The notes: generated by a model not told the origin, from the sequence alone. Counted from the stretch's first letter, positions 19,406 through 44,920 are shown. The stretch: DNA of 64,000 bases from Bacteroidota bacterium (GCA_023453665.1 JAEXTA010000089.1:64846-128845), one strand, 5' to 3'. Numbers and translations: made by a program.

Positions 19406-19441
19406 ATTTTATTGGATTAACTTTCTCTTTAAACTAAAAAA

Positions 19442-19485
19442 ATGTCAGTCTTCAATCCCAAACAACCGGGAGCGCAGACTGACAT
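19442..19485. terminator. Hairpin between convergent genes (possible bidirectional terminator)
   Basis: 10-bp stem ATGTCAGTCT / AGACTGACAT with a 24-nt loop, between the stops of the 17555..19405 (+) and 19507..19878 (-) genes. The large loop lowers confidence. Confidence 0.5.
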
Positions 19486-19506
19486 CATTATTAAACAGAC
19501 AAGTTT

Positions 19507-19878
19507 TTATTTAGGCGAATGGAATGCCATGTTGTTTCCTTCACAGTCAATGAAGAAAGCCATATAACCAATATCATCATTTATTTTAGTTTTGGGCATT
19601 GTAATTTTTCCTCCGGCTTTTTCCACTTTACCGAGAGGAACACTAAGATCCTCGCCGCCATTTAAATAAAGTTTTGGTCCGTCCATTGTCGGTTTGTAAC
19701 CTTCGCCCTGGCACAGTGAACCACTTACTTCCTTTGGATCTTCCATAGGAAAGAAAGCCATTTTAATACCGTACATTTCAACGTGCTGAAATTCACCGCC
19801 GATTACATCGGTGTAAAACTTTACCGCGCGATCCATATTTGTTACCGGGATCTCTACCCAATTAATTAAGTTAGCCAT
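19507..19878 (-). CDS. VOC family protein (glyoxalase/bleomycin-resistance fold)
   Basis: N-terminus MANLINWVEIPVTNMDRAVKFYTDVIGGEF is typical of small VOC proteins, and the size (123 aa) fits. Confidence 0.8.
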   Translation of the reverse strand: MANLINWVEIPVTNMDRAVKFYTDVIGGEFQHVEMYGIKMAFFPMEDPKEVSGSLCQGEGYKPTMDGPKLYLNGGEDLSVPLGKVEKAGGKITMPKTKINDDIGYMAFFIDCEGNNMAFHSPK

Positions 19879-20046
19879 CTGTGTCTCCTGAAATTTAGTT
19901 AATAAAAATTTTGGGCAGGCAGAATAGTAAATAATTTTTATTCCCGGCTAATACTTTTTGTAATGGTCAATAAAATTGATAAAAGGTTGAATCGATAAAA
20001 GAATTTTTTTGACTGTGTTCATCAATTCAACCTTAAGAATGAAAGT

Positions 20047-21696
20047 CTATTTCATCAGTATCATTTTTTTAGTCTGATTGAATTGACCGGATTTTAAAGT
20101 ATAAAAGTATAATCCGCTTGATAATTCATTCGCACTAAAATTGACTTCATAACTTCCGGGGCTTTTTTCTCCATTAACCAGGGTAACAATTTCTTTACCA
20201 AGCACATCGTAAACACGCAATGTTACCCACGCCCGGGACACATAGTATCCGTCCCCAACAGTGTATCGAATTTTTGTATTTGGATTGAATGGATTAGGGT
20301 AATTTTGTTCAAGTGAAAAACTTTTTACAAAGAAATCTTCCTCATCAACATTTGTTGTTGCTGTTAATTTAACAGCCATTAAATCCTGGTTCCCGTTTGT
20401 ACCTTCCCCATCCCCAGATGCATATACATTCCCAACTCCATCAATCCACATTGCAAATGCTCTTGATGATTCGTTTATATCATAAGCATATTCCCATTGA
20501 TAATTTCCTGATGAGTTATACTTTACAACAGTAAATACAAAGTTTGAACCAGTCCGGTTGCTTTCGCCGCAAACATAAATATTTCCATCTGCATCAAGAT
20601 TAATTGCAAGGGGATCATCATCAAGATTATTCGGACCATCATAATATGATACCCACTGCTGTACTCCGGAACTATTATATTTTACGATTGCGAAATCATT
20701 GTACCCGCTTCCTGAGGCCCTTCTTGTTCTTCCGGTTACAAATACATTTCCACTTTCATCTAACACCATATCTTCGGGAATATCCTGAGCATTATTTTCA
20801 TTGAACTCTGATCGCCATAAGACTTGTCCGGCAGCATTTATTTTTAGTGTTGCATAGTCTGTTCCGCTGTTTGTGTTTTGAATTCTGCATAACGCATAAA
20901 TATTTCCCTCATCATCCAGATCAAGATCAATTGCAAATTCATTAAGACTGTTATTAGTTCCATTAACACTAACTGTCCAGACGGTATCAAGAGACGAATT
21001 GTATTTGATAATTACCACTTCCTCTCCGTTTGTTAATCCGCTGAAACTATGTCCTGCGGAAAATATATTCCCGTTATTATCAGCGATTATATTTGTTCCG
21101 TCATCACTTGCATTAGTCACCTGTCCGAAATAATGCCAGTCAAGGATGTTGCCGTTTGCATCCATTTTTATTGTTGCCATATCATAGTAACCGTTATTTA
21201 AAGGTGAAAGTCTTCCTGTTACATAAACGTTACCATTTTCATCGGCAAAAACATCATAGGCTTCACCATCTGAAGTACCGGAAGAATCAAAAGCACATAT
21301 CCACTGCAGCACACCGGTTGAAGAATATTTAAGAGTTACGATTTTACTTGCAACCGAAGTCCAGTCACTTGTTCCGGTTACATAAACATTGCCGGAGTTA
21401 TCAACACAAATACCATAAGGACGGTCAGTTCTGTTTTGCGGACCATTGTAAATAGCTGTCCATTCGGCATTTCCTGATATGTTACATTTAACAGTGATTA
21501 AATCAGAACCTTGTCCTCCCTGTGTAAAATATCCGTATCCCGTTATATAAGCATTGCCTGAATTATCATACACAACACGTTCTGCTGTCTCGGGTACATT
21601 TCCGGGAGCTGTAAAAAAACTCATCCATTGCGGTGCGATTTGTGCAAAGAGTATTGGCGGACAACAAAGCAGAACAAACAGTATCACTGCTTTCAT
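20047..21696 (-). CDS. T9SS-sorted SBBP-repeat beta-propeller protein
   Basis: Signal peptide. Many D.SGN.YVTG / D..GN.Y..G repeats (SBBP-type). C-terminal NYPNPFNPNTKIRY...KKMILMK. Confidence 0.8.
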   Translation of the reverse strand: MKAVILFVLLCCPPILFAQIAPQWMSFFTAPGNVPETAERVVYDNSGNAYITGYGYFTQGGQGSDLITVKCNISGNAEWTAIYNGPQNRTDRPYGICVDNSGNVYVTGTSDWTSVASKIVTLKYSSTGVLQWICAFDSSGTSDGEAYDVFADENGNVYVTGRLSPLNNGYYDMATIKMDANGNILDWHYFGQVTNASDDGTNIIADNNGNIFSAGHSFSGLTNGEEVVIIKYNSSLDTVWTVSVNGTNNSLNEFAIDLDLDDEGNIYALCRIQNTNSGTDYATLKINAAGQVLWRSEFNENNAQDIPEDMVLDESGNVFVTGRTRRASGSGYNDFAIVKYNSSGVQQWVSYYDGPNNLDDDPLAINLDADGNIYVCGESNRTGSNFVFTVVKYNSSGNYQWEYAYDINESSRAFAMWIDGVGNVYASGDGEGTNGNQDLMAVKLTATTNVDEEDFFVKSFSLEQNYPNPFNPNTKIRYTVGDGYYVSRAWVTLRVYDVLGKEIVTLVNGEKSPGSYEVNFSANELSSGLYFYTLKSGQFNQTKKMILMK

Positions 21697-21857
21697 ATAC
21701 AGAATCTCCTATAAAAATATTTGTGATCTGGTTAAGTTTGCCGGCAGGGTGTTCATAATAATATTGCCGGACTAAAAGGAAGAAAAATTTATGTTGAACA
21801 TAGCGTTTTAAGGTTATTCTGTCAAGAGAACAACCGGCGGTAAACACGAATCACTTT

Positions 21858-22781
21858 TTATGATAACAACGAATAACTTATCAGAAGTTTTCCATCAGAT
21901 TGCCATTGAATCCAGCCTTCACCTTTTTTATTAAGGTCATCATCGTAAAGAATTACTTTTATCCAATTGTCTTTAACAAAAACAGGAGACATTATTGAAA
22001 CTTCTTCCATGTGAACTAAACCAGCATTTGACAGAGGTTTTACCCGGAGCGGATTAGTTTCAGGATAAAGATTTTCAACTGAAAAAACTTTTAATAAAAA
22101 TTCCTGCCACAAAATTATTTCTGCATCAGATGAAGATATCCATGCTGACAGTTCCGTTTCTTTATTTACTTCAACTTCAACCCAATCTTTAGAAAGTGTA
22201 ATGATTTTAAGATACAGAATTTCATAATCCATTTTTTGATGCTCAGGATAAAACCATGGCGGCGCATAACTTATATCATATTGATGATGGTCAGAGTGTG
22301 AAAAGACAATACTGTCAGATGGAAAATGTTCAGCGGCTGATTTTTCAAAAACGGGTTCAGGATAAAAATATAAAACTCTTTTGTTGAAGAAATCCGGCTT
22401 TGCCATACCGAGTCCCATTTCGTCATTTGATTTTTTCTGATTGACAAAACTGATCAATGGTTTTATTGATGCATAATTTATTTCTGAATTTCCACGATGA
22501 TCAAAAGCTGATGAGGCAGACATTACGCGGACTATTGTCCATCCAAAAAACAGCAGATTTATCACAGCAAGTACAATTATTAATTTTTTTAATACTTCTG
22601 GTTTTACTTTTTGAATCACCATAACTGATATGACAATTCCCACAACAAAACCTGCTATGCTGAAAAGAAATACTGCTGCCCCGCCGGCTAATCCGGCATC
22701 ACGCTGCAATGTAAGCCCGGCAATTGAAGCGCCAATAAAAATGCCGGTGATTGCGCTAAGAATTACAAAAAGAATTTTCAT
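21858..22781 (-). CDS. Membrane protein (three N-terminal TM segments + ~200-aa extracytoplasmic domain)
   Basis: Hydrophobic N-terminus. The start codon lies 1 nt after the stop of the upstream Ser/Thr kinase gene. Confidence 0.65.
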   Translation of the reverse strand: MKILFVILSAITGIFIGASIAGLTLQRDAGLAGGAAVFLFSIAGFVVGIVISVMVIQKVKPEVLKKLIIVLAVINLLFFGWTIVRVMSASSAFDHRGNSEINYASIKPLISFVNQKKSNDEMGLGMAKPDFFNKRVLYFYPEPVFEKSAAEHFPSDSIVFSHSDHHQYDISYAPPWFYPEHQKMDYEILYLKIITLSKDWVEVEVNKETELSAWISSSDAEIILWQEFLLKVFSVENLYPETNPLRVKPLSNAGLVHMEEVSIMSPVFVKDNWIKVILYDDDLNKKGEGWIQWQSDGKLLISYSLLS

Positions 22782-22782
22782 T

Positions 22783-25353
22783 TTATTCCAGAATTATTTT
22801 TGAATAATAATCTGCTTCTTTCTTTTTCCCCCATTCTTTATACAATTCAACAAGAGCGTCTAAAGCTTTTCGGGTATTTTCATGTTTGCTGCCCGAGATT
22901 TCAGCTAATCCCTCATAACAATTTTTAAGGTGATGTTCTGCTTCAGTAAACTTCTTTGCGGTAAGCAGGCATAATCCAAAATGAAATTGAGTTGTAAGCG
23001 TAAGATTATTTTTCTCGCCAAATTCTTTTTTTCTTATTTCATAAGCTCTCTTGAGATAAGATATACCTTCTTCAAACTTTCCGTTTCCTTCAAGCGCTCT
23101 GCCGTACCACATATACGAGCGGCTTAAATTGACATTATCTTCATCATAATTTTTTAAGCCTACATCCACCGAAGCTTTCATAAACTTTTCTGCTTTATCA
23201 TAAACCCCGATGTTGTGATATGTGCTTCCGACATTAGAATAGGCAAGTATAAGATCAGGATGATCTTGTCCCAAGACTTTTATTTTGATGTTAAGAGCTT
23301 CTTCAAGAAGTGGAATTGCTTTTTCATGTTCTTTTTTAAATATACTTATGAAAGCCAGATTGTTTATAACTCTCGATACCTGTATATGATAATTGCCATA
23401 ATGTTTTCTGAAAACTCTCAGCGCTTCCCGGTATAGTGAATCGGCTTCATCAAGTTTATCAAGATAGTTTAATGATGTTGCAAGATTATTTTTTATCTGC
23501 GCTACATCAGTGTCTTCGGGTCCTTTAATACTTTCACCAATAATCAGAGCTTCCCTGGTTATTTCCTCTGCCTGTTCGTATTCACCTTTATCTGTCATAA
23601 GTGAACCAATTGCATCAAGCAGCAGCGCTCTTTCAAATGTAGGTGCCGATTCAACCGTTCTCAGCATTTCAAGCGAGGTACTATAAAACTTTTCACTCTT
23701 TTCGAAATCACCTTCATAATGATAAACCAACCCGAGATTTTTCAAACTCATTGCTGTCTCTTTACTTCTTTCGCCGAATAGTTTTTTGTTAATCTCCAGA
23801 GCTTTATTCATTTCAGCTTCAGCAGAACTGTAGATACCAAGATTCTGATAAGTGTTGCCAAGCAGTGTTCTTATTTCGGCTTCAAGCTGCGGCAGTTCGG
23901 CAAGTTCAAATTCAAGTTTGCCAGACGCTTTGTTTAATACATCTATAACTTTTACTTCGCTGCCTTCCTGCTTGGGGTCCGGTGCGGATATCATTTCAAG
24001 CAGGAATGATTTAATCCTGTTTGATTTATCGGCTTCAAGTTTTGCAATATCTCTTTCTTTCGCAGCAAGATGTCCCTGCCAGAGTATTCCTGCCAGCCCG
24101 GCGTTTATCAAAACAAAAATTATTGCTGCCGGAATTACTGCTGTTTTATTTCTTTTAACAAATTTTTTAGCGCGGTAAGTAAATGAATCTTTATGCGCTG
24201 CAACGGGCAGATCATTCAAATATCTTTTTATGTCTTCAGCAAAATGTTCGATGGATGAATATCGTCGTTCGGGCTCTTTCCTGATTGACATCGAAATAAT
24301 ATTATCTAAATCACCTGCTAATTTTTTATGGAGTTTGTCAATATTACCTTCTCTGGTACTGCTGACGGATTCAGGATTAATTATGATTATTTCTTCATCT
24401 GATTTTTTTTCAATTGTCTGATAAATAATTTCACTTGGTTTTGCTGGTTCAGTCTGTGTAACAACTTTGCTTATGTCAGACTGAAGAATACTTTTTATTT
24501 TATATGGACTATGACCGGTTAAAAGTTTATACAGAATTATTCCGAGCGAATACACATCACTTGCTGTTGTTATTGCTTCTCCCTTTACTTGTTCGGGACT
24601 CGCATATTCAGGCGTTAAATTCCAGACCCCTTTGTGAGTTAGCATTTCATTTGCTTCACCCTCGGGAGTTAAAAATTTTGCAATACCGAAATCAAGAAGT
24701 TTGGGTTCGCCATCCTGCGTTACAAGTATGTTGTTTGGTTTTAAATCTCTGTGAACAACTAAATTATGATGTGCATACTGAACAACCGATGCAACTTTAA
24801 GAAACAGATTTAACCGTTCTTTAATATTTAATTTATGATTGTCGCAGTATTCATCGATAGGAATCCCTTCAATATATTCCATCACTAAAAACTGGATACC
24901 GTCATCAGTGATTCCGCCGTCAAGCAGTCTTGAAATATTCGGGTGATTTAGATTAGCTAAAGTCTGCCGTTCATTCTGAAATCTTTTTATAACAGTACTG
25001 GAAGCAGCGCCGGGATTAATAATTTTTATTGCGGCTTTTTGTTTTACCTCGTCATCACGAAAACCGAGATAAACCAAACCCATTCCGCCCTGTGCAATAA
25101 GTTTTTCAACTTTATATCTTCCGAAAAATTTACCTATAAAAAAGGCACTGTTCTCTTTTTCAGACTGATTTAAAAGATGTGCTGATTCCATAAATTTTTC
25201 AGATTTGTCGTGCGCGCTAAGTAAAGAGAGAACTTCTTTCTTTAATTCCGGATCACTGCAATTTTCATTAAGAAATGTTTCTCTTTCACTTTCAGTGAGT
25301 TCGTATGCTTTATAAAATATTGTTTTAAGGTCTGACCAGGTGTTTTTATCCAT
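22783..25353 (-). CDS. Membrane Ser/Thr protein kinase with C-terminal TPR domain
   Basis: Hanks kinase motifs (AIKII, HRDLKPNNIL, DFGIAK, TPEYASPEQ). Single TM (VIPAAIIFVLINAGLAGILW). About 420 aa of TPR repeats after the TM. The N-terminal ~55-aa helical segment is shared with the second kinase. Confidence 0.9.
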   Translation of the reverse strand: MDKNTWSDLKTIFYKAYELTESERETFLNENCSDPELKKEVLSLLSAHDKSEKFMESAHLLNQSEKENSAFFIGKFFGRYKVEKLIAQGGMGLVYLGFRDDEVKQKAAIKIINPGAASSTVIKRFQNERQTLANLNHPNISRLLDGGITDDGIQFLVMEYIEGIPIDEYCDNHKLNIKERLNLFLKVASVVQYAHHNLVVHRDLKPNNILVTQDGEPKLLDFGIAKFLTPEGEANEMLTHKGVWNLTPEYASPEQVKGEAITTASDVYSLGIILYKLLTGHSPYKIKSILQSDISKVVTQTEPAKPSEIIYQTIEKKSDEEIIIINPESVSSTREGNIDKLHKKLAGDLDNIISMSIRKEPERRYSSIEHFAEDIKRYLNDLPVAAHKDSFTYRAKKFVKRNKTAVIPAAIIFVLINAGLAGILWQGHLAAKERDIAKLEADKSNRIKSFLLEMISAPDPKQEGSEVKVIDVLNKASGKLEFELAELPQLEAEIRTLLGNTYQNLGIYSSAEAEMNKALEINKKLFGERSKETAMSLKNLGLVYHYEGDFEKSEKFYSTSLEMLRTVESAPTFERALLLDAIGSLMTDKGEYEQAEEITREALIIGESIKGPEDTDVAQIKNNLATSLNYLDKLDEADSLYREALRVFRKHYGNYHIQVSRVINNLAFISIFKKEHEKAIPLLEEALNIKIKVLGQDHPDLILAYSNVGSTYHNIGVYDKAEKFMKASVDVGLKNYDEDNVNLSRSYMWYGRALEGNGKFEEGISYLKRAYEIRKKEFGEKNNLTLTTQFHFGLCLLTAKKFTEAEHHLKNCYEGLAEISGSKHENTRKALDALVELYKEWGKKKEADYYSKIILE

Positions 25354-25546
25354 CGACTTCTGTCCTTAATGAACACTCTGCTGTTATTAAAAATGAATGA
25401 TAAAAGATCCGAACGGTGTAACAAGAATAAATATTTTAATTTTCATTTTAAAGGAGAATAATAAATAACTCAACATATTGCCTAGGTCATACTTTACTTA
25501 AAAAACAGCATCCCAGCAAAGCGGGATTTCTGATTAAGTGATCGCA

Positions 25547-26806
25547 TCACTTAATCATCAACATTTTTTTTGTTTCTTTAAAATCTCCGACTGTCATCTG
25601 GTAAAAGTAAATTCCGCTGGATAAGCCTGATGCATTCCATTCAATCTCATAAGTACCTTCAGATTTTTCTGCATTAACGAGAATGGCAATTTCATTACCC
25701 AAGACATCATATACTTTTAATGTTGTTTGTAGAGATGAGGCATGCCATGTCTCTACTACGGGAATTGTGTATTTGATCTTTGTGCTTGGGTTAAAAGGAT
25801 TCGGATAATTTTGTCCTAAATAAAAATCCACAGGCGAAGAATTATTTTCTTCAACAGAAGTAATATCGCTAGTTTTGCGTATCCAGATACCATAACCAGA
25901 ATTATTGACATCAGCAGCGGCAGCAACAATTAATCCCAAGTTAATATCCATAGCAGAAACAAATTGAAAAGGCGGAGTATTGCCCGGCAGGGCGTTTATT
26001 GATGTGCTGTCGGTATGAATTTTATACATTTCAGGAATCAAAGATCCGATAAACAAATATTCTCCATAGCTTTTAAATTCAGATGGATACCATGTGAAAG
26101 GTCCGATTCGTTCCCAGCTAGCTCCATCATTTGTACTTTGGAACATTGCACTGTAAGTCAAATAAAATAACCTGCCGTTAAGCTTTTCCAGTGAAGATAA
26201 AGTTGATGAACCCAAATTGCTTTCGGTGGGAGTCCATGTTAAACCAAAATCTTCAGATTTGTAAATAAGATTACCTGAAGAAACTAATAAACATGCAAAA
26301 AAATTATTCCCTGATCTCAAAAACTCACTGACGTTGGAATTTAAACTATCTATTGTTATTGCATTCCATGAAAAACCTTTATCAGTAGAGCGGTAAGACA
26401 TTGAATCAGCTCCGGCAAAAATATGATTTTCTGTTCTGTAAATCGTATTGATATTTTTGTCAGTAAGTTCTAATGTTAATTCATTCCAGGAAGTTCCATA
26501 GTTAGTTGAACTAAAAAGTCCGCTGTCGGTTGCCGCGTATATAAAAGTTGTATCCGGTTCTTTATAAGCAAATAAATCCCTAATAACTGATCCGTTTAAG
26601 CCGGACACAGCAACTTCCCAGCTTCCGCCAAGATTTGAAGTTCTGTATATAATTCCATTATCATACCCTGTTCCTGCAATAATAAAATCATCAACGTAAA
26701 CTAATGCGCCTACCTCTTCACCAGGTAAAGGATAATTTATTGAAGTCCATTGTGCCTTAATTGGTTTGACTATTAAAATTAACAAGAGTAAAAAAATATA
26801 TTTCAT
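25547..26806 (-). CDS. T9SS-sorted BNR/Asp-box beta-propeller protein
   Basis: Signal peptide. Five S/T.D/N.G.SW-type Asp-box motifs (SNLGGSWE, TNYGTSWN, TDKGFSWN, EDFGLTWT, TNDGASWE). C-terminal NYPNPFNPSTKIKY...KKMLMIK. Confidence 0.8.
   Translation of the reverse strand: MKYIFLLLLILIVKPIKAQWTSINYPLPGEEVGALVYVDDFIIAGTGYDNGIIYRTSNLGGSWEVAVSGLNGSVIRDLFAYKEPDTTFIYAATDSGLFSSTNYGTSWNELTLELTDKNINTIYRTENHIFAGADSMSYRSTDKGFSWNAITIDSLNSNVSEFLRSGNNFFACLLVSSGNLIYKSEDFGLTWTPTESNLGSSTLSSLEKLNGRLFYLTYSAMFQSTNDGASWERIGPFTWYPSEFKSYGEYLFIGSLIPEMYKIHTDSTSINALPGNTPPFQFVSAMDINLGLIVAAAADVNNSGYGIWIRKTSDITSVEENNSSPVDFYLGQNYPNPFNPSTKIKYTIPVVETWHASSLQTTLKVYDVLGNEIAILVNAEKSEGTYEIEWNASGLSSGIYFYQMTVGDFKETKKMLMIK
25729..25756. 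repeat. Degenerate GTAGAGAC-family palindrome inside the CTD coding sequence
   Basis: GTAGAGATGAGGCATGCCATGTCTCTAC. The outer 7 bp pair perfectly and the inner arms are degenerate. It encodes VETWHASSL at the same CTD loop position as 19193..19220. Confidence 0.6.
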
Positions 26807-26826
26807 TTTTGATCTTCTCAGTTTAT

Positions 26827-28941
26827 TTATTTTATTAAAATCATTTTTTTAGTTTCAACAAGATTATTTATTTGAAGCTGATAGAAATAAATCCCGCTGG
26901 ATAATCCAGCGGCATTCCATTCAACTTCATAAGTACCGGCAGATTTTTCTGCGTTAACGAGAATGGCAATTTCATTACCCAAAACATCATATACTTTTAA
27001 TGTTGTTTGTAGAGACGAGGTTTGCCTCTTCTCTAATTCAGGAATTGTATATTTGATCTTTGTAGTTGGATTAAAAGGGTTCGGATAATTTTGTAAAAGC
27101 AAAAATTCTGTTGGGGTTTTATTGATTTCATTTTCTGCAAAAGTAGCCCCGCCATTTGTAGTTCTGATAATTGTTCCGTATTCACCAACTGCTGTTCCGT
27201 TATTTTCATCAGTAAAAGAAACATCGTATAAGGTATTTCTTGTTCCGCTGAATTGTGAGATCCAGGTAGTTCCTCCATCTGTAGTTTTCAGAATAACACC
27301 TGATACACCTGCTGCAATTCCAATTTCAGAATTAATAAAAACAACGCTTGTTATATCGCTTGTAGTTCCACTTGATTGCAGAGTCCATTCTTCACCCCCA
27401 TTTGTAGTTTTTAGAATTGTTCCCTGATGCCCTACAATTATTCCATTGTTTAAGTCTGTAAAAAAAACTCCGTTAAGATTTCGAAAAGTTGAACTTGTTT
27501 GAGGCATCCAGTCAACTCCACCATTTGTAGTTTTTAAAATTCTACCATTGCCGCCAACAGCAGTTCCGTTAACATTATCAATAAAATGAACATCATAAAA
27601 ATTTTCTGATACCCCGCTTGATTGCGGAGACCATAATGTTCCTCCATTTGTCGTTCTTAATATTATTCCTTCATTTCCAACTATAGTCCCGTTATCCGGA
27701 TCAGTAAAATAAATTTCATTTAATTGTTTTGTTGTTCCGCTTACCTGTGTAGTCCAAGATGAGCCACTATTTGTTGTTCTAAGTATTTTTCCATTTGCTC
27801 CTGCAATTGTTCCATGAGTTGCATCCGCAAAGAAAACATCATATAGATAATTGGATGTTCCGCTTGATTGCGATGACCAAAGAGCGCCGCCGTTTGTAGT
27901 ACGTAATAATAAGCCTTCTTCCCCTACAGCTACTCCATTATCATTAGTTGGAAAGTAAACACTAAATATCCACCTTGATGTTCCTTGTGATTGTGATGTC
28001 CATTGAACACCACCATTTGTGGTCCTTAGTATTTTTCCATATTCACCAACAGCAGTTCCATTATTTAAGTCAGAAAAGTTGACACTGAATAATGATAAAT
28101 CAGTTCCGCTTGATTGAGGAGACCAATTAGCCCCGCCATTTGTTGTTCTTATGATAGAGCCAAAAAGACTAACAGCCGTTCCATTGTTTGCATCTCTGAA
28201 ATAAACACTCTTCAGCCAGTTTGAAGTTCCACTGGAAACCGGATTCCAATTAACTCCTCCGTTTGTTGTTCTCATTATTGTTCCGGAAGTACCAACGACT
28301 ATTCCGTTATTAGCATCTGTAAAAAATATAGCGTCAAACCCTGCCTGAATTCCCGATAGCTGCGGAAACCAATCAGTCCCTCCATTTGTAGTTCTGAGTA
28401 TTGTTCCGAAGCAAACTGCAGCTCCGTTATTGGCATCAATAAAATGAACACCATATATAGAATTTGTTGTTCCGCTTGATTGGGGCAACCAGTTATTACC
28501 ACCATCTGTAGTTTTAAGAATTGTACCATTTTCACCGACAATAATTCCGAGATTTGTGTTGATAAAAAAGATGTTTCTTAACGAACGTGTAGTTTGACTT
28601 TCCCGGGGAAACCAGGTATCACCACCATTTGTAGTTTTGATTATTAACCCACCTGAGCCAACAACTGTTCCATTATTTTCATCAGTAAAAAAAACAGCAT
28701 TTAAAGCATTGGTTGTTCCACTTGATTGAAAATTCCAATCGATGCCGCCATTTGTTGTTTTCAAAATTGTTCCGGCGTGACCGACAGTCCAGCCGACTGA
28801 AGACGAAATAAACTTAGCTCCAAATAGTGAATTGCCTTGCGGTAAGGGATTCTGCCAGAACCATCCGGCAGAGGCTGTAGATTGTGCTTTCAGAATATTA
28901 ATGCACATTATTAAAACCACAACAACGGAAAGCTTTTTCAT
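26827..28941 (-). CDS. T9SS-sorted Ycf48/BNR-like double beta-propeller protein
   Basis: Signal peptide. Fourteen ~40-aa repeats of the form G.IL(K/R)TTNGG..W..Q.SGT...L..V.F.D.N.G. C-terminal NYPNPFNPTTKIKY...KKMILIK. Confidence 0.85.
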   Translation of the reverse strand: MKKLSVVVVLIMCINILKAQSTASAGWFWQNPLPQGNSLFGAKFISSSVGWTVGHAGTILKTTNGGIDWNFQSSGTTNALNAVFFTDENNGTVVGSGGLIIKTTNGGDTWFPRESQTTRSLRNIFFINTNLGIIVGENGTILKTTDGGNNWLPQSSGTTNSIYGVHFIDANNGAAVCFGTILRTTNGGTDWFPQLSGIQAGFDAIFFTDANNGIVVGTSGTIMRTTNGGVNWNPVSSGTSNWLKSVYFRDANNGTAVSLFGSIIRTTNGGANWSPQSSGTDLSLFSVNFSDLNNGTAVGEYGKILRTTNGGVQWTSQSQGTSRWIFSVYFPTNDNGVAVGEEGLLLRTTNGGALWSSQSSGTSNYLYDVFFADATHGTIAGANGKILRTTNSGSSWTTQVSGTTKQLNEIYFTDPDNGTIVGNEGIILRTTNGGTLWSPQSSGVSENFYDVHFIDNVNGTAVGGNGRILKTTNGGVDWMPQTSSTFRNLNGVFFTDLNNGIIVGHQGTILKTTNGGEEWTLQSSGTTSDITSVVFINSEIGIAAGVSGVILKTTDGGTTWISQFSGTRNTLYDVSFTDENNGTAVGEYGTIIRTTNGGATFAENEINKTPTEFLLLQNYPNPFNPTTKIKYTIPELEKRQTSSLQTTLKVYDVLGNEIAILVNAEKSAGTYEVEWNAAGLSSGIYFYQLQINNLVETKKMILIK
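27009..27036. repeat. Degenerate GTAGAGAC-family palindrome inside the CTD coding sequence
   Basis: GTAGAGACGAGGTTTGCCTCTTCTCTAA, with arms AGAGACGAGG / CCTCTTCTCT pairing except for one mismatch. It encodes LEKRQTSSL at the same loop position. Confidence 0.6.
27123..28821 (-). repeat. Fourteen tandem ~120-nt coding repeats (propeller blades)
   Basis: The TTNGG motif recurs 12 times exactly, plus 2 variants (TTDGG, TTNSG), at ~40-aa spacing in the translation of 26827..28941. Confidence 0.8.
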
Positions 28942-29078
28942 ATTTTGCCTTTTGTCTAATGTAAATGAAAAATGTTTTTAAAGTGTCTTACACTATTTCA
29001 TGCGTAAAAAATGAAAATCGGGCTCAAATAAGATTGGTTAAGTTTTGAAAGGATTGAATTAGCTGTTTATAAAATTTG

Positions 29079-29645
29079 CTATACACCTAATTCTCTGAAC
29101 AGCCATGCTTTTGCCAGGCTCCACTCTCTTTTTACTGTAGCTGCGGAACACTCAAGTACATTAGCAGTTTCTTCAACACTAAGTCCGGCAAAAAACCTAA
29201 GCTCAACTACCTTACTAAGTCTTGGGTCAAATGATTCAAGTTTTTGAAGAGCATCTTCCAGGGCAATAATATCTTCGTCTGATTCGATTGCCATTTCCAT
29301 TGCTTGTTCAAGCGCTAGTATTGTTTTTCCTTCGCCTCTTTTTAGAGAATTACGTTTACGAGCATGGTCAACTAATATCTGCCTCATTGAATTTGCAGCA
29401 ATACCGAAAAAGTGTGAGCGGTTTTGCCAGGAAAGGTTTTGATCCCCCACAAGTTTTAAATATGCTTCGTGTACAAGTTCGGTTGTCTGCAGAGTATGAT
29501 TTCGGTATTCATCTCTCAGATACTTTGATGAAATTTTTCTAAGCTCATTGAATATGTATGGAAGAAGTTCATCTACAGCTTCTTTTTTTCCATTGCTGTA
29601 TGCTCCAAGAAGGAGCGTAATATTCTGTTGAGATTTGTCCGGCAT
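29079..29645 (-). CDS. ECF-type sigma factor (PF07638 / TIGR02999-like, kinase-associated class)
   Basis: Characteristic N-terminus (LL.....G...A.DELLP.I..ELRKISSKYLRDEYRNHTLQTTELVHEAYLKL) and region 4 HTH (LRFFAGLSVEETANVLECSAATVKREW..AKAWL.REL). Confidence 0.9.
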   Translation of the reverse strand: MPDKSQQNITLLLGAYSNGKKEAVDELLPYIFNELRKISSKYLRDEYRNHTLQTTELVHEAYLKLVGDQNLSWQNRSHFFGIAANSMRQILVDHARKRNSLKRGEGKTILALEQAMEMAIESDEDIIALEDALQKLESFDPRLSKVVELRFFAGLSVEETANVLECSAATVKREWSLAKAWLFRELGV

Positions 29646-29764
29646 TATTAATTCAGAATGTTTAGGGATATTGAATTCGGGACTTAAAATAGAGGATTAT
29701 CTAAGGGATGTCAAATGAAAGATATTATTTAAGAATAATTTCAACGTAACTATTCAGAGAGATA

Positions 29765-29795
29765 AAAACGGGATAAGAATCTTTTATCCCGTTTT
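29765..29795 (-). terminator. Rho-independent terminator after the 29819..31447 gene
   Basis: 12-bp stem AAAACGGGATAA / TTATCCCGTTTT with a 7-nt loop and T-rich flanks, 24 nt downstream of the minus-strand stop. It separates the two sigma/kinase modules. Confidence 0.7.
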
Positions 29796-29818
29796 AATAA
29801 TTAATTAATGTTAAATGA

Positions 29819-31447
29819 TTATTTAACTAATATCATTTTTTTGGTTTCTATAAATGAGCCGGTTTGTAATTTGTAAAAATAAATCCCGCTTGATAAGCTT
29901 TCAGCATTAAATTCAACTTCATAATTTCCTGCTGCCAGATATTCATTTATAAGAGTTGCAACTTCATTTCCCAGTGCATCAAAAACTTTTAATGTTTGGT
30001 AACTGCCGACAGGTGATTTCCAACTCATTTTTGTACTTGGATTGAATGGATTCGGATAATTCTGTTCTAAAGTAAATGATGAAATAGAATTTCCTTCATC
30101 ATCAACAGATGTTGGTGTTTGAACATATTTAATTATTACTATGTCATATCCGGTTGTTGAATTATTATCACTGGTGTTTCCAACGGCAACCACATTTTTA
30201 TCCTGATCAACACCAATAGCCACAGGATTATCAGAACTGTTATTTGTTCCCCCGTTAAACATCTTTGCCCACTCAAACGAACCACTCGTATTATATTTAA
30301 CAGTTACAATGTTTGAATTGCCATAAACCTGCCCGATTACATATACACTTGCTTCATTATCAATAGCGAGATTATATCCTGTATAACCGTCTGCGCCAAT
30401 GCCGGTACCATCATACGGACCTACCCAAAGTTCATCTCCGGCAGGGCTGTATTTGATGGTGGTTATCTTATAAGTAAATGGTAACCCTGATGTACCTGTT
30501 GAACCAGTTATATAAACATTTCCAAGATTATCTTTGACGATAGCACGGGCCATGTCCCATCCAGTCGGTGAGTTATATAGCTTACTCCACATAACAGATC
30601 CGGTTGGATCAAACTTAACAGTTGAATAATCAATAGTTGTGCTATTTGTTCCTGTTATTATAATGTTGCTGTTGTTATCAATAACCATGTCAATAACATT
30701 CTGATTCCCGATACCCTGACCATATCTTGCGGCCCAGACAAAATCCAGATTTTGTTCATACTTCAAAACAACAAATGAAAGCGAATCATTGTCATTTACA
30801 TATCCACCGACAATAATTTTACCCGCACCATCGAGTCCGATTTTTCTTCCGCCTTCACTGTTAGAGTGATAGAAAGTCTGATTTAACAGAGCGCCTTCGG
30901 GACTGAATTTTACAAGGGAGATATTATTATAAGTGATTACATTGGTCGCGTACTCCCCAACGACATAAACATTCCCGGTTAAGTCTGTAACAATATCATA
31001 TCCGCCATTGTATGCGCCACTGTATTCGAAAACATATGACCAGAGTTGTGTTCCGTTAGGACTGTATTTAATAACCAGCATATCATTACCACCACCGGAA
31101 TAAATAGCAGTTTCCCCTGTTACATAAACATTACCGGAAGCATCAACATGAATTGCTCTCGTAAAAGCGCCGTTGTTATTAACAGCAACATAATTTTGTA
31201 TCCACTGTTGCTCTCCCTGCGAATTGTACTTAACAGTTACAGATTGTATATCGACATTTGCATTTGTCTGTCTTTGTGAGCCGGTAACATATACATTACC
31301 TTCAGCGTCAACATACATATCATTTACGTTTTCGTTCCTGGTGCTATCAGAAGTAAATCTCTGCACCCATTGTTCCATTACTTGCGCTGTCGCTAATTGA
31401 AATAAACATAACACAGCCCAAAAGGTAAATAAAGTTTTCATATTCAT
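29819..31447 (-). CDS. T9SS-sorted SBBP-repeat beta-propeller protein
   Basis: Signal peptide. Repeated D..GNVYVTG motifs. C-terminal NYPNPFNPSTKMSW...KKMILVK. Paralogous in architecture to 20047..21696. Confidence 0.8.
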   Translation of the reverse strand: MNMKTLFTFWAVLCLFQLATAQVMEQWVQRFTSDSTRNENVNDMYVDAEGNVYVTGSQRQTNANVDIQSVTVKYNSQGEQQWIQNYVAVNNNGAFTRAIHVDASGNVYVTGETAIYSGGGNDMLVIKYSPNGTQLWSYVFEYSGAYNGGYDIVTDLTGNVYVVGEYATNVITYNNISLVKFSPEGALLNQTFYHSNSEGGRKIGLDGAGKIIVGGYVNDNDSLSFVVLKYEQNLDFVWAARYGQGIGNQNVIDMVIDNNSNIIITGTNSTTIDYSTVKFDPTGSVMWSKLYNSPTGWDMARAIVKDNLGNVYITGSTGTSGLPFTYKITTIKYSPAGDELWVGPYDGTGIGADGYTGYNLAIDNEASVYVIGQVYGNSNIVTVKYNTSGSFEWAKMFNGGTNNSSDNPVAIGVDQDKNVVAVGNTSDNNSTTGYDIVIIKYVQTPTSVDDEGNSISSFTLEQNYPNPFNPSTKMSWKSPVGSYQTLKVFDALGNEVATLINEYLAAGNYEVEFNAESLSSGIYFYKLQTGSFIETKKMILVK

Positions 31448-31543
31448 TTCCTTTAATAAGTTTTTAATTAATCAGATCCCCGGATTCAGGATCACATGCG
31501 TAATACTGTGCTCATTTGGCTCATGTATGAACCGGGATTTATT

Positions 31544-34129
31544 TCAGGAAGGATTCGTGATGTGGTTTAATTTTTCTGCTTTTTCTTTTTGATATGTTGA
31601 CTCATAAACTTTAATAAGAAATTCTCTGAACCGAACAGCACTTATATTGTCTGCCCCTCTTTGTTTTACAACCTGCTCATAACCATATAACAATAATTTT
31701 TCTGCTTCGGAATATCTTTTAAGATAGTAGGATGCGATACCTAATTCACCAGAAGCCGTTATTATATTCGGATGGTCTTCGGGATAATTTTTTGATTGAA
31801 TTACCAAAGCATTGCGTAAATATTTTTCTGCGGATACATATTCTTTTTTCTCGAGCAGAACTTTTCCATACCAGTAATTAGTCATTCCCACCCAGATATG
31901 ATCCGGATTAAGTGATGTTTTGAAATTCTCCAGCGCTTTTGAAACATGCTCATAAGATTCTTCAAACTTTCCAGCACGAAACAGAAATCCGCCTAAATTC
32001 ATATAGGCAAGCCCGACCAGTGAATGTTTATCGCCATAGTGATTTATTTTTAATTCAAGTGATTTTTTAAAATACCACTCCGCTTTTTCATTATCGTTTT
32101 TATCAATATAAATGTATCCAAGGTTATTATAATTTGATGAGGCTTCGGGACTGTTTTCACCGAAAAGTTCAATATTCATTTTGAGCGAACGTAAGAAATA
32201 TTTTTCCGCTTGGTCAATTTCTTTTAACTCGTGTAATGTAATTGCAAGATTATTAACAGTGCTTGCAACATCCCTGTCTTTCTCACCAAAATTTTTTTCA
32301 AAAATTTCTAATGCATCCTGGTGATATTTTTTTGCGGTTTCGTATTCTGCATAATCATTTTTAAGAATTCCATAATCATTTAATGCGCTTGCAAGATCTC
32401 TGGGAGGTGCGTCTTTATTCTTTCTAAATATCGAAATACTTTTTTGATAAAGTGAGTCGGCTGTTTTAAGATCAGCAATCCAGTGATAGTAAAATGCAAT
32501 ATCATAAATACTTGCCGCTGCCTGATTGCTTTCATCACCATAAACTTTTTTATTCAGTTGTAAGGCTCTGTCAAGATGCGGTTTCGCCTGATCAAACTCT
32601 CCTAAATTAGTAAGTGTTCTGCCTATTGTTTTTCTGATCGCGGCTTCAATTTCCGGCTGACCTTCAAATCTTTTTCCAACATCATCTGCTGCTTTTTTCA
32701 GAACGTCATATACTTTTACATCTTTTCCTATTTCAGTCGGATCAACAGATGAAAGCATATCCTGTAAAAATTTATTTACAGTTTCAACTTTGATTGCTTC
32801 CGTCCGTGCTTTGTCTCTTTCCATTGCGGCTATATTTGCCTGCCATATGATTGCAATAAGACTGACAATCATAAACAATAAGAATGTTGCGGAAACAACC
32901 ACGCCCTTTTTGTGTCTTTGAACAAATTTTGAAATCCTGTAACCGGCAGTATCTTTTTGTGCAATAACCGGTAAGCCCACAAGGTGTCTTCTGATATCTT
33001 CGGAAAACTGTTCAACAGAAACATATCTTCTTGCAGGATCTTTGTGCATCGCTTTAAGAACTATGTTATCAAGATCTCCCCTGAGTTTATGAAAAAGTTT
33101 TTGACGTTTATCCTCTTGTTTGTTTTCATTATCCGATGCTGATTGGTTATTGCTATCACTTTCAGCAAGTTTTGAAATTGTTTTTCGAAATCGATCACTG
33201 GGTTTAATTATGTTTTCTTCTGTAATTATTTTGCTTATTGCGGATGGCGAGTTGTTTGTGATTTTGTACGGCTGTTCTTCCGTAAGAATCTGGTACAGCA
33301 TTACACCGAGTGAATAGATATCGCTTGTAGTTGTTATCTGCTCGCCTTTGATTTGTTCAGGACTTGCATACTCCGGTGTAAGGTGCCACATACCCGTACG
33401 CGTAAGTCCTTCTTCATTTTCCAGGATGTTTTCATCAAGCAGTTTGGCAATTCCAAAATCTAAAAGCTTGGGGTGACCGTCATTTGTGACTAAAATATTT
33501 CCTGGTTTAATATCCCTGTGGACGACAAGATTCTGATGCGCATATTGAACAGCGCTGCAAACATCTCTGAATAATTTTAATTTCTGATTAATGTTCAAAT
33601 TATTCTGGACGCAGTATTCAGTAATAGGAATGCCGTCTATAAATTCCATTACAAGATAAGGAAGTCCTTCATCGGTCTGTCCACCGTCAAGCAGTTTAGC
33701 TATGAAAGGATACTGAAGACTTGCAAGTGTTTGTCTCTCAATTAAAAATCTTTTAAGGTGATAATCAGAATTCAGACCATGTTTTAAAATCTTTATTGCA
33801 ACTTTTTGTTTGAAGTTTTTATCATTTCTTTGTCCTGAATACACAATACCCATTCCACCGTAACCGGCTTTGCCTTCAATTATAAAGCTTCCTATCTGTT
33901 TGCCAATGTAAGGGTCTGTTATAGAATTTCTTTTTTCATTAATGCCCGAAACCTGCTGTTCAATAAAGTCTTCCGTATTTTCGAGTGAATTGATAAGCGA
34001 GATGATTTCTTTTTTTAATTCTGAATCATTCCCGCATTTTAAATCTAGAAAACTTTCTCGCTCACTCTGCGGAAGCAGCAATGTTTCGTCAAACAATTGG
34101 CGGATTAGTAATAATCGTTCTTTATTCAA
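31544..34129 (-). CDS. Membrane Ser/Thr protein kinase with C-terminal TPR domain
   Basis: Hanks motifs (AIKILK, HRDIKPGNIL, DFGIAK, TPEYASPEQ). Single TM (VVVSATFLLFMIVSLIAIIW) followed by a TPR region. TTG start 15 nt after the sigma-factor stop. Confidence 0.9.
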   Translation of the reverse strand: MNKERLLLIRQLFDETLLLPQSERESFLDLKCGNDSELKKEIISLINSLENTEDFIEQQVSGINEKRNSITDPYIGKQIGSFIIEGKAGYGGMGIVYSGQRNDKNFKQKVAIKILKHGLNSDYHLKRFLIERQTLASLQYPFIAKLLDGGQTDEGLPYLVMEFIDGIPITEYCVQNNLNINQKLKLFRDVCSAVQYAHQNLVVHRDIKPGNILVTNDGHPKLLDFGIAKLLDENILENEEGLTRTGMWHLTPEYASPEQIKGEQITTTSDIYSLGVMLYQILTEEQPYKITNNSPSAISKIITEENIIKPSDRFRKTISKLAESDSNNQSASDNENKQEDKRQKLFHKLRGDLDNIVLKAMHKDPARRYVSVEQFSEDIRRHLVGLPVIAQKDTAGYRISKFVQRHKKGVVVSATFLLFMIVSLIAIIWQANIAAMERDKARTEAIKVETVNKFLQDMLSSVDPTEIGKDVKVYDVLKKAADDVGKRFEGQPEIEAAIRKTIGRTLTNLGEFDQAKPHLDRALQLNKKVYGDESNQAAASIYDIAFYYHWIADLKTADSLYQKSISIFRKNKDAPPRDLASALNDYGILKNDYAEYETAKKYHQDALEIFEKNFGEKDRDVASTVNNLAITLHELKEIDQAEKYFLRSLKMNIELFGENSPEASSNYNNLGYIYIDKNDNEKAEWYFKKSLELKINHYGDKHSLVGLAYMNLGGFLFRAGKFEESYEHVSKALENFKTSLNPDHIWVGMTNYWYGKVLLEKKEYVSAEKYLRNALVIQSKNYPEDHPNIITASGELGIASYYLKRYSEAEKLLLYGYEQVVKQRGADNISAVRFREFLIKVYESTYQKEKAEKLNHITNPS

Positions 34130-34144
34130 TTGATAATAGAGGTT

Positions 34145-34786
34145 TTAGTTAGATTGTATTTCGCGGTAGAGCCATGCTTTGGCAAAGTTCCAGTCACGCT
34201 TAGCTGTTGCGGGTGAAATATTCAGAACTTCCGCGGCTTCTTCGATTGTTAAACCGGAGAAATATCTCAGCTCAATAATTTTACAGGAACGTTCTTCAAC
34301 CTGTTCAAGTTTTTTCATCGCGTCATCAAGCGCCAGTAGTTGTTCATCGCTTTTATCAGATAAATTAAACACATCATCAAGAGAGAGATTTTCTTTTCCC
34401 TCGCCTCTTTTAAGTGATTTTCTTTTGCGTGCATGATCAACAAGAATATTTCTCATAGAATTTGCTGCTATACCAAAAAAGTGAGCGCGGCTTTGCCATG
34501 CGATATTCTGATCACCAACTAATTTGATATAAGCTTCGTGAACCAATTCAGTAGTCTGAAGTGTATGATTTCTGTATTCATCACGTAAATACTTTGAAGA
34601 GATTTTTTTTAATTCGCTGTAAACATGAGGAAGTAGTTCGTCCACCGCCCCTTTTCTTCCCTTAACACAATCCTCCAGGAGTATTGTAATATTTTGAGGT
34701 GTTAATTCAGACAAGATATTTTTTAGCTTTCTTATTAGATACTTTGATGCTGAAAGTAAATTAGTCTTTTGATTGTTGTTTGTCAA
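34145..34786 (-). CDS. ECF-type sigma factor (PF07638 / TIGR02999-like)
   Basis: Close paralogue of 29079..29645 (AVDELLPHVYSELKKISSKYLRDEYRNHTLQTTELVHEAYIKL; LRYFSGLTIEEAAEVLNISPATAKRDW). TTG start. The true start is uncertain because of a ~25-aa N-terminal extension relative to the paralogue. Confidence 0.85.
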   Translation of the reverse strand: MTNNNQKTNLLSASKYLIRKLKNILSELTPQNITILLEDCVKGRKGAVDELLPHVYSELKKISSKYLRDEYRNHTLQTTELVHEAYIKLVGDQNIAWQSRAHFFGIAANSMRNILVDHARKRKSLKRGEGKENLSLDDVFNLSDKSDEQLLALDDAMKKLEQVEERSCKIIELRYFSGLTIEEAAEVLNISPATAKRDWNFAKAWLYREIQSN

Positions 34787-35036
34787 TAATCACCCGGGCG
34801 CAAATATGTTTGTGGAATTCTGCCCGCCGGAATAATTAAAACTTTTAACAGCAGACATAATTGAATTTGAATTTTATTGTTGCAATATTTTATACACACA
34901 TATCTTTCATCCGTATAACAATGGTTAATTCTGTTTGCAGAATATAACCTAGTTAAAGGATTGCCTTATCAGACAATGTTAAATGGGGATGTTTCTGAAT
35001 CATTCAATTCTTTTAATATAATCTTTGGAGGAAACT

Positions 35037-35309
35037 ATGCTGCTTCACAAAAGAGCATTCGGACTTGCAACGGGTCTTCTTGCGGGTTTATCAATCCTGT
35101 TAGGTACGTGGGCATTATTACTTCAAATAACTCCTGAGAATGTTGAATCCAGAATTTCATGGATACTTCTGGGTTATAACTACACCTGGGGCGGAGCTGT
35201 GTATGGATTTTTATGGTTGTTTGTTTTGGGATTTATTGCCGGTGTTATTTTTGCGTGGATATATAATACGTTCAGCAGAATAATTTACAAATCGAAAAGT
35301 AATAATTAG
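35037..35309 (+). CDS. Small membrane protein (hypothetical)
   Basis: ATG at 35037 lies 4 nt after GGAGGA. Two to three hydrophobic helices. No recognisable family. Confidence 0.55.
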   Translation: MLLHKRAFGLATGLLAGLSILLGTWALLLQITPENVESRISWILLGYNYTWGGAVYGFLWLFVLGFIAGVIFAWIYNTFSRIIYKSKSNN

Positions 35310-35348
35310 TTCTCACCCGAATGAATAATAGAGGGTATCAATAATCTT

Positions 35349-35375
35349 GTAGAGACGGGACAGTTCCGTCTCTAC
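35349..35375. repeat. Intergenic GTAGAGAC-family palindrome (probable bidirectional terminator)
   Basis: GTAGAGACGG-GACAGTT-CCGTCTCTAC is a perfect 10-bp stem with a 7-nt loop between convergent genes. The right arm contains the stop codon (35372-35374) of the minus-strand metallopeptidase gene. Confidence 0.85.
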
Positions 35376-36208: not shown

Positions 36209-36317
36209 ATTATTTCCTTTCGTTTATTAAAAGAAATTATCCGGGTGAAAAAATCGAACCGCTTTAATTTAGTTAATAGACAATTAAACTAAAATTTTAT
36301 GAGCTGATTTGTTACAA

Positions 36318-36349
36318 ATAAAAAGCGGACATTAAATTATGTCCGCTTT
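36318..36349 (-). terminator. Rho-independent terminator after the giant T9SS gene pair
   Basis: 11-bp stem AAAGCGGACAT / ATGTCCGCTTT with a 6-nt loop, followed by a T5 run on the minus strand. Confidence 0.75.
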
Positions 36350-36395
36350 AACAAGAAGATGAATTTAATACAGTTAACTCTTCAAAACATAATTT

Positions 36396-39842: not shown

Positions 39843-39879
39843 TTGATTCTCTTTTTTATAAAAAATTATTTGAATCCTA

Positions 39880-43017: not shown

Positions 43018-43030
43018 TGTATTATTCCAT

Positions 43031-43372: not shown

Positions 43373-43470
43373 TTTTTTATTATTAATTTTGACTTGCTTC
43401 AATTTGGTTTGGTAATATTGAAAGTTAAATGAGTAATACCCCTTAATTTTATAGGTAGAAACCCCTAGAA

Positions 43471-43505
43471 GATGGAAGATGGTTGATGGAAAATGGAAGA
43501 CGGGA
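43471..43505. repeat. Five tandem heptamers (GATGGAA-like)
   Basis: GATGGAA GATGGTT GATGGAA AATGGAA GACGGGA in the intergenic region between the two response-regulator genes. Confidence 0.7.
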
Positions 43506-43625
43506 AAAAGTCGGCAGTTTTCAGTAAGCAGTAGTTATAATTTATTTTCTAAATGTTCCCGCCTTGCGGGATTTAATTGTTGGGATAATTTTGTTCAGCA
43601 TTTTAGCAAACAGATAATTTAATAA

Positions 43626-44282: not shown

Positions 44283-44347
44283 AACAGTATCTAAAAGAAT
44301 TCTAAATTACCGATGAGAGTTCCTTATTATTTATTTACTTAATTTTT

Positions 44348-44899: not shown

Positions 44900-44920
44900 A
44901 ATTTTATGCTTTATTTATTG

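Follow-up and report, generated by a model that had tools for sequence, protein, structure and literature searches.

A stretch of 64,000 nucleotides from Bacteroidota bacterium (GCA_023453665.1 JAEXTA010000089.1:64846-128845), hereafter called the window, was studied between its positions 20047 and 34786. This part contains two modules, A and B, in which the gene of an extracytoplasmic function (ECF) sigma factor is found together with that of a Hanks-type Ser/Thr kinase and with genes encoding secreted beta-propellers that bear the C-terminal domain (CTD) of type IX secretion system (T9SS) cargo. All these genes, from 34786 down to 20047, lie on the minus strand. The analysis leads us to propose, with a probability of about 0.65, that the two are paralogous ECF43-type modules, each switching a private promoter of the adjacent propeller gene or genes.

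In the order of transcription, module A comprises a sigma-70-type promoter, the sigma factor gene sigA, the kinase gene kinA, which begins 15 nt after the sigA stop codon, a putative ECF-type promoter (P_ECF-A), the SBBP propeller gene sbbpA and a terminator (Table 1). Module B comprises a sigma-70-type promoter, sigB, P_ECF-B, a Ycf48-like propeller gene, the BNR propeller gene bnr, a weak hairpin, kinB, a membrane protein gene, a second SBBP gene (sbbpB) and a hairpin; kinB belongs to the same string of genes as sigB, 3.7 kb further downstream. The coordinates and strands given for this part by an original prediction, made from the DNA sequence, agreed exactly with open reading frame (ORF) calling, and its domain assignments for the sigma factors, kinases, SBBP, Ycf48-like and BNR genes were borne out by Pfam and NCBIfam. 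The pairwise paralogy that it proposed also stood, far beyond chance: over their full length, the sigma factors are 65% identical (E 1e-93), the kinases 40% (E 0) and the SBBP proteins 35% (E 1e-83).

Table 1. Genes and regulatory features of modules A and B, in window coordinates.
Feature	Position	Strand	Description
Sigma-70-type promoter of sigA	34758..34786	-	TTGACA (34786..34781), 17 nt, TAATTT (34763..34758)
sigA, ECF43-type sigma	34145..34714	-	189 aa; start revised to TTG 34714; mechanical ORF extends to 34786
kinA, PknS-like receptor Ser/Thr kinase	31544..34129	-	N-terminal extension, Hanks domain, one transmembrane segment, TPR predicted periplasmic
P_ECF-A, putative ECF-type promoter	31491..31525	-	TGAGCC (31523..31518), N15, TTACGCATG (31503..31495)
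sbbpA, SBBP beta-propeller	29819..31447	-	Signal peptide and T9SS type A CTD; predicted target of P_ECF-A
Intrinsic terminator ending the sbbpA unit	29765..29795	-	12-bp stem, dG -14.1, z -4.25, then UUUUU
Sigma-70-type promoter of sigB	29686..29714	-	TTGACA-17-TATTTT
sigB, ECF43-type sigma	29079..29645	-	188 aa; PF07638 and TIGR02999; alignment with orthologues
P_ECF-B, putative ECF-type promoter	28995..29028	-	TGAGCC (29026..29021), N14, TTACGCATG (29007..28999)
Ycf48-like double 7-bladed propeller	26827..28941	-	PSII_BNR, 14 repeats of 41 aa; T9SS CTD; predicted target of P_ECF-B
bnr, BNR/sortilin-like propeller	25547..26806	-	T9SS CTD; separated by 20 nt from the Ycf48-like gene upstream
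Weak terminator-like hairpin between bnr and kinB	25510..25527	-	z -1.9, not compelling
kinB, PknS-like receptor Ser/Thr kinase	22783..25353	-	Pkinase and TPR; own sigma-70-like promoter candidate at 25424..25397
Membrane protein	21858..22781	-	3 transmembrane helices and all-beta SH3-like C-terminal domain; starts 1 nt after kinB
Sigma-70-like element upstream of sbbpB	21797..21825	-	TTGACA-17-TATGTT; no P_ECF motif (weight matrix score -1.9)
sbbpB, second SBBP T9SS cargo	20047..21696	-	SBBP and Por_Secre_tail/TIGR04183
Terminator-like hairpin and U run after sbbpB	19985..20032	-	z -3.5

For comparison, related loci (numbered with the prefix L) were collected from three sources, namely a sigB scan of species-representative genomes (L002-L033), a metagenome scan with an alignment-based sigma profile, and look-ups of kinase homologues. 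The metagenome scan yielded mostly short, Acidobacteria-like soil contigs with sigma factors 50-56% identical, which were used as a control without T9SS, and its informative loci were L034, L035, L038 and L041 alone. L001 denotes the public gene call of the same contig as the window, and L114 (CP065001.1:4085059-4107626) the closest complete genome.

Sigma factors, kinases and secreted cargo of the two modules

Both sigma factors matched TIGR02999 (215 and 219 bits for sigA and sigB, cutoff 126) and PF07638 (183 and 186 bits) over the whole protein, and they consist of regions sigma2 and sigma4 only. We take these two families to be equivalent to the ECF43 group. The sigA gene had been placed at 34145..34786; the gene and its strand stand, but the start does not, because the TTG at 34786 forms the first bases (the -35 box) of a TTGACA promoter element common to the orthologous sigma genes. 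We therefore moved the likely start to the TTG at 34714..34712, which gives a 189-aa protein aligning end to end with 13 orthologues of 188-189 aa. The public gene call over-extends sigA likewise, to 213 aa. Upstream of every orthologous sigma gene compared, a TTGACA-17-TATTTT element was found.

At the sigma2.2 position, both proteins carry the sequence LQTTELVHEAY, invariant in 15 aligned Ignavibacteria sigma factors, among which two subtypes were distinguished, the A type and the B type (sigB and its orthologues). QTTE occupies the site where most ECF sigma factors carry an acidic DAED motif. Loss of DAED and a conserved Thr within the consensus QTTA are the hallmark of the ECF43 group (PMC13147305, PMC8999054); the fourth residue of the motif is here E and not the A of that consensus. 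Phosphorylation of this Thr by the neighbouring Hanks kinase, leading to binding of core RNA polymerase, has been shown for EcfP/PknT and EcfK/PknS (PMC8999054, PMC13147305, PMC8103513). None of the 10 proteins at the locus matched an anti-sigma family of Pfam or NCBIfam, and the expected linkage of a PF07638/TIGR02999 sigma factor to a Ser/Thr kinase without anti-sigma factor holds for both modules. Judged by their sequence features, the sigma/kinase pairs are ordinary ECF43-type modules and as such already known biology.

The two kinases (~860 aa) contain a Pkinase domain at about aa 80-368 (144 and 156 bits), with intact catalytic motifs (VAIK/AAIK, HRDxKPxN, DFG and TPEY), and TPR_12/TPR_10 repeats in their C-terminal half. 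Each has one hydrophobic segment (aa 407-437 and 403-429), with flank charges of +4/+5 N-terminal to it and 0/+1 C-terminal to it. Since this single transmembrane (TM) segment has positive-inside flanks, the TPR region of both kinases is predicted to be periplasmic, in agreement with the topology put forward originally (cytoplasmic Hanks domain, one TM segment, periplasmic TPR); a cytoplasmic TPR outcome did not arise. The best solved relative of the cytoplasmic part of kinB is residues 1-364 of Xanthomonas citri PknS (PDB 9EED, E 1e-48); in the phmmer alignment, which takes in the N-terminal extension, the match starts with residue 4 of kinB opposite residue 7 of PknS. PknS itself has an N-terminal extension of ~80 aa, a TM segment and periplasmic TPRs, and its signalling requires the periplasmic domain (PMC13147305). 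Between kinA and kinB, the TPR domains are the most diverged part (29% identity vs 53% for the kinase domains), which indicates that modules A and B probably read different signals.

A conserved domain with the consensus M.PERW..vk.lF..A..l...eR..fL...C..D..L..EV.sLL makes up the first 60-75 aa of these sigma-linked kinases (window 25129-25353 and 33896-34129, minus strand). The same domain was found in kinases of Ignavibacteria, Acidobacteriota, Phycisphaerae, Proteobacteria and Acidimicrobiia as well as in X. citri PknS, and at L020 (10576-11286) it occurs without kinase domain, in a 237-aa protein encoded directly after a sigma gene. This extension may be a sigma-docking module.

The four cargo proteins all possess a hydrophobic N-terminus (signal peptide) and a CTD (36-41 bits for TIGR04183, cutoff 27; 37-38 bits for PF18962, cutoff 23). 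Family searches detected no catalytic family in any of the four, and calling them non-catalytic means no more than this. Among named families, a Leptospira adhesin family comes nearest to the SBBP proteins, with scores below the cutoff of its model. The bnr gene is probably co-transcribed with the Ycf48-like gene. T9SS is present in Ignavibacteria; the 64-kb window contains none of its machinery genes.

A bipartite element upstream of the first cargo gene

The first cargo gene of each module is preceded by a conserved bipartite element made of TGAnCC, a spacer of 14-15 nt and (T)TACGCATG(T). P_ECF-A is located 48 nt upstream of the sbbpA ATG and P_ECF-B 58 nt upstream of the ATG of the Ycf48-like gene. 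TACGCATG occurs twice only in the 64 kb, at 31502..31495 and 29006..28999, and the chance expectation of the bipartite pattern is 0.66 per window. A shared promoter motif had been predicted upstream of 28941, 31447 and 21696; we found it at the first two positions and not at the third, which is the start of sbbpB.

A set of other Ignavibacteria loci amounting to 297 kb contained 12 strict matches to the motif, each on the strand of the module; 11 stand directly after a sigma or kinase gene and one before a cargo gene that precedes the sigma gene. Loci collected later added 8 further matches. Besides the two in the window, the motif occurs at 22 sites in 16 other loci. A position weight matrix (PWM) was trained on the 22 sites from other genomes, with the window left out. 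This matrix gave 26.9 bits to P_ECF-A and 30.6 bits to P_ECF-B, and nothing else exceeded 12 bits on either strand of the 64 kb. When the upstream regions of 52 CTD genes were scored, 13 reached at least 24.6, all of them belonging to genes that come first behind a sigma or kinase gene. Two genes that adjoin sigma genes had intermediate scores (16.3 in L120 and 13.5 in L014). Scores of 8.3 or less were obtained for the remaining 37, among them sbbpB and the five other CTD genes of the window.

At the level of sequence, the motif has the form of an asymmetric -35/-10 pair whose spacing is fixed, and it is conserved in front of the cargo of orthologous modules. About 16-17 nt separate its two boxes, and it is found 45-110 nt upstream of start codons, a geometry and a distance that ECF promoters share. 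Loci with only B-type modules have a 26-nt form of the motif and those with only A-type modules a 27-nt form; its position is directly behind the sigma gene in the B type and directly behind the kinase gene in the A type. An Rfam scan of 19000-36500 returned two sub-threshold chance matches only, and the motif is not a known RNA element.

The genes that follow the motif are diverse. They encode SBBP propellers (window, L006, L038, L114, L115), FG-GAP propellers (L004, L034, L035, L118), Ycf48/BNR proteins (window, L115), undefined domains with a CTD (L002, L009, L014, L035, L117, L121), an outer membrane protein (OMP) beta-barrel (L041, L115), proteins without detectable family or CTD (L116) or the kinase itself (L114). 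At L035 (4700-4915), the degraded 3' end of a sigma gene and a second copy of the motif precede a second cargo gene, indicating a segmental duplication of sigma tail, promoter and cargo. Because the sigma remnant and the motif were duplicated together in front of this second cargo gene, it is with the module that the motif moves, and not with the cargo. In an informal count over L004-L121, the genes behind the motif encoded propellers, undefined folds or an OMP barrel, and no hydrolase was recognisable among them, while the background CTD genes of the same loci included M14 and S8 peptidases, a nuclease, an esterase, an amidase and NAGPA.

The motif could be genuine and yet be read by another ECF sigma factor or by a transcription factor, the sigma and kinase genes being its neighbours for some other reason such as island ancestry. 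One common factor could serve the A-type and B-type sites, which are nearly identical; several modules lack the motif, and target promoters of ECF43 sigma factors are not documented in the literature searched. We consider this reading unlikely. The strong sites in ~470 kb of Ignavibacteria DNA are all on the same strand as a sigma or kinase gene of this family and no more than ~250 nt away from it. The motif remains part of the module even where the cargo is exchanged, down to the sigma remnant duplicated together with it at L035, and its asymmetry is ill-suited to a dimeric transcription factor.

Conserved upstream of B-type kinase genes is also the element T(A/T)AT(T/C)CTTGTT (window 25397-25440, minus strand; L002, L005, L007, L035). 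MAFFT aligns it onto TACGCATGTT of the intact motif found directly before kinB in L114 (9908-9934), and it could be the relic of a second promoter copy or a separate element.

Linkage to T9SS cargo in Ignavibacteria and the proposed circuit

The CTD profile detected 10 CTD ORFs among the ~47 genes of the window, some of them beside other regulators. Because such genes are common across the whole window, adjacency within it is by itself weak evidence. The comparison of synteny that had been proposed as a check was therefore extended to 20 other Ignavibacteria loci, the window being excluded, and the sigma and kinase genes were found beside CTD genes in 15 of them. Genes on the same strand inside or directly flanking the modules were counted as module-linked, and the rest of the ±10 kb as flanks. 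CTD genes made up 22 of the 38 module-linked genes and 16 of the 190 flanking ones (58% vs 8%, odds ratio ~15), with a Fisher p of 6e-11 that is overstated because the loci are phylogenetically related.

T9SS cargo might be so frequent that any regulator has some nearby, and the CTD genes of the window do include neighbours of two-component systems. The enrichment of CTD genes beside the modules of the other loci and the restriction of the motif to linked cargo, with none before the other six CTD genes of the window, make such a chance adjacency highly improbable, and we regard it as already largely refuted.

The two subtypes differ in gene order. In 10 of 12 genomes with the B type, one or two T9SS cargo genes stand between sigma and kinase genes, whereas in the A type the kinase gene follows the sigma gene directly and cargo comes next in about half of the cases. 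L114 has three tandem sigma/kinase modules, each with an SBBP-CTD gene behind it, and the number of modules and their cargo content vary between close relatives.

A sigma gene followed by a kinase gene with the same N-terminal domain was found in at least six phyla or lineages (Acidobacteriota, Gemmatimonadota, Planctomycetota, Proteobacteria, Actinomycetota and Bacteroidota-related). The pair is old and widespread. Outside Ignavibacteria, in the Balneolales, Rhodothermales, Gemmatimonadota and Acidobacteria-like loci sampled, neither a T9SS CTD nor the motif was present beside such pairs; their neighbours were an ABC transporter, an M14 peptidase, unknowns and a phosphofructokinase-like gene, the latter identified from its N-terminal sequence alone.

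We propose the following circuit. The sigma genes would be transcribed constitutively from housekeeping-type promoters, as the conserved TTGACA-17-TATTTT element suggests. By analogy with EcfP/PknT and EcfK/PknS, each sigma factor, in which QTTE replaces the acidic core-binding motif of sigma2.2, would be inactive until its partner kinase phosphorylates the Thr. The kinase would sense an envelope cue through its periplasmic TPR ectodomain, and the activated sigma factor would then read the neighbouring private promoter TGAnCC-N14/15-TACGCATG. The output of module A would be the SBBP propeller gene, with transcription ending at the strong terminator, and that of module B the Ycf48-like and BNR propeller genes, with possible read-through into kinB and the membrane protein gene that may provide a positive feedback. 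The products, bearing a signal peptide and a type A CTD, would reach the cell surface by way of Sec and then T9SS.

The original prediction offered two readings of the cargo, either as the dedicated regulon of the sigma/kinase pair or as extracytoplasmic co-sensors watched by the TPR domain. Comparison across genomes favours the former, with adjacency in three quarters of the other loci and the motif in both the window and 16 loci elsewhere; sbbpB lacks the motif and is not tied to the module by it. Several points weigh against the regulon reading as a whole. Co-location is the sole ground on which each sigma factor is paired with a promoter. The motif is missing from the surroundings of about half of the A-type modules (L008, L011-13, L119, L120), whose targets lie elsewhere or which work differently. 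The motif was derived from the same family of loci in which it was later counted, so the two window sites are its only clean hold-out. The A and B promoters are very similar, and cross-talk or reading by a third sigma factor is possible. In L114, the Ycf48/BNR pair is absent between sigB and kinB and the motif directly precedes the kinase gene, hence cargo is not obligatory. To these is added the relatedness of the loci, which inflates the significance of the CTD enrichment.

The co-sensor reading holds that the periplasmic TPR domain binds the neighbouring T9SS cargo, or its CTD in transit, and by this means follows the state of the cargo or of secretion; the linked genes would then encode a receptor and its ligand. 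TPRs are protein-protein interaction modules, they are predicted to face the periplasm that T9SS cargo crosses, the periplasmic domain is needed for signalling by PknS (PMC13147305), and B-type cargo sits between sigma and kinase genes. However, orthologous kinases, 63-82% identical, adjoin unrelated folds (SBBP, FG-GAP, Ycf48/BNR, undefined, OMP barrel) or no cargo at all, and syntenic loci may differ by the presence of cargo alone (L006 vs L008; L011 vs L012/13). Its position behind a conserved promoter marks the cargo as an output, and the same kinase architecture is common in phyla without T9SS. The comparison thus gave no support to this reading, which appears quite improbable, and we favour the cargo as regulon because what lies behind the motif differs between genomes.

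One can also imagine a combination, in which the module is a fixed plug-in expression site, made of kinase, phospho-switched sigma factor and private promoter, behind which Ignavibacteria repeatedly exchange different T9SS surface propellers by gene replacement, while the product or its CTD in transit also feeds back on the TPR domain and is both output and co-sensor. We hold this to be rather unlikely; if true, it would amount to a self-monitoring, exchangeable surface-protein cassette, which has not been described for T9SS or ECF43.

Other features of the window and comparison with known systems

The strong terminator read at 29765..29795 in the original prediction was confirmed by reading and folding the sequence, and a terminator pattern scan did not pick up this hairpin (29795..29765). 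At the place of the sigma-70-like element upstream of sbbpB, L115 (12733-12759; L114:13960-14110 was also compared) has a canonical ECF motif, and the element of the window looks like an ECF promoter that has decayed or turned housekeeping-type. The membrane protein encoded at 21858-22781 matched no known family of Pfam or NCBIfam. It belongs to a family of conserved hypothetical proteins, ~310 aa long, with members in Ignavibacteria, Cyclobacteriaceae, Chitinophagales and Calditrichota (Fibrobacterota-Chlorobiota-Bacteroidota, or FCB, group), and its relatives are usually not linked to kinases. Its AlphaFold2 (AF2) model (predicted local distance difference test, pLDDT, 86) shows three TM helices, a disordered linker and small beta-barrels, and a fold search with this model gave a weak likeness to SH3b domains of NlpC/P60 peptidases, from which no function could be assigned.

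Elsewhere in the window, other sensors also stand beside T9SS propellers. A Reg_prop/Y_Y_Y histidine kinase (44979-48104), a LuxR response regulator (43626-44282) and a lone receiver (43031-43402) are encoded within 36396-49893 on the minus strand, flanked by a Kelch-CTD gene (48229-49893) and the genes of two CTD proteins of >1000 aa. Within 57543-63409, on the same strand, a hybrid two-component system (57543-61799) adjoins a Ycf48/BNR-CTD gene (61910-63409). The theme of a sensor beside a T9SS propeller recurs in L117. The ECF motif is absent from these neighbourhoods. An IS200-like Y1 transposase gene (44465-44899, minus strand) separates the histidine kinase gene from that of its LuxR response regulator. 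A 90-aa hydrophobic ORF preceded by a GGAGG ribosome-binding site (35037-35309, plus strand) lies between a Zn-peptidase gene (35372-36208) and sigA.

ECF43-type pairs are widespread, and only two have been characterised, one in the polymyxin resistance of Vibrio and one in the control of a type VI secretion system (T6SS) of Xanthomonas. No new kind of machinery is added here, and the weight of the finding is moderate. Our literature search found no description of individual T9SS cargo genes under dedicated envelope-sensing control in this phylum, which is what the modules suggest. As far as the literature shows, both the clade-wide coupling of ECF43-type modules to individual T9SS cargo genes in Ignavibacteria and a sharply defined candidate target promoter for such modules are new. 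Sigma factor, kinase, candidate promoter and an output of one or two genes make up a compact circuit within 5 kb, an arrangement repeated in many Ignavibacteria species with different outputs, and both promoter recognition and phospho-activation could be tested in a heterologous host.

The closest known system is EcfK/PknS of X. citri. Its kinase, like those of the modules, has an N-terminal extension followed by a Hanks domain, a single TM segment and periplasmic TPRs, its sigma factor likewise combines an uncharged sigma2.2 motif and a conserved Thr, and in both cases the pair is encoded next to secretion-related genes, which it controls in X. citri and is predicted to control here. The modules differ in their output, which here is predicted from sequence to be individual T9SS cargo genes and not a secretion machine, in the length of the TPR region (~420 aa, compared with three repeats in PknS), and in the tandem arrangement of two or three modules with B-type targets inserted between sigma and kinase genes. 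EcfP/PknT of Vibrio parahaemolyticus, which responds to polymyxin, likewise lacks DAED and has no anti-sigma gene nearby; the Thr switch has been shown for EcfP (STTA) and would apply to QTTE by analogy. Phylum, kinase ectodomain and regulon are different, and the Glu in fourth position leaves some acidic character to the motif.

PorXY-SigP of Porphyromonas gingivalis also links an ECF sigma factor to type IX secretion within the FCB group, but SigP belongs to another ECF group, is under two-component control and regulates T9SS machinery genes instead of single cargo genes. Finally, although the modules lack a SusC/SusD pair, an anti-sigma factor and recognisable glycan-degrading enzymes, their logic is that of the polysaccharide utilization loci of Bacteroidota, in which an ECF/anti-sigma pair or a hybrid two-component system provides one dedicated sensor for each small set of adjacent genes.

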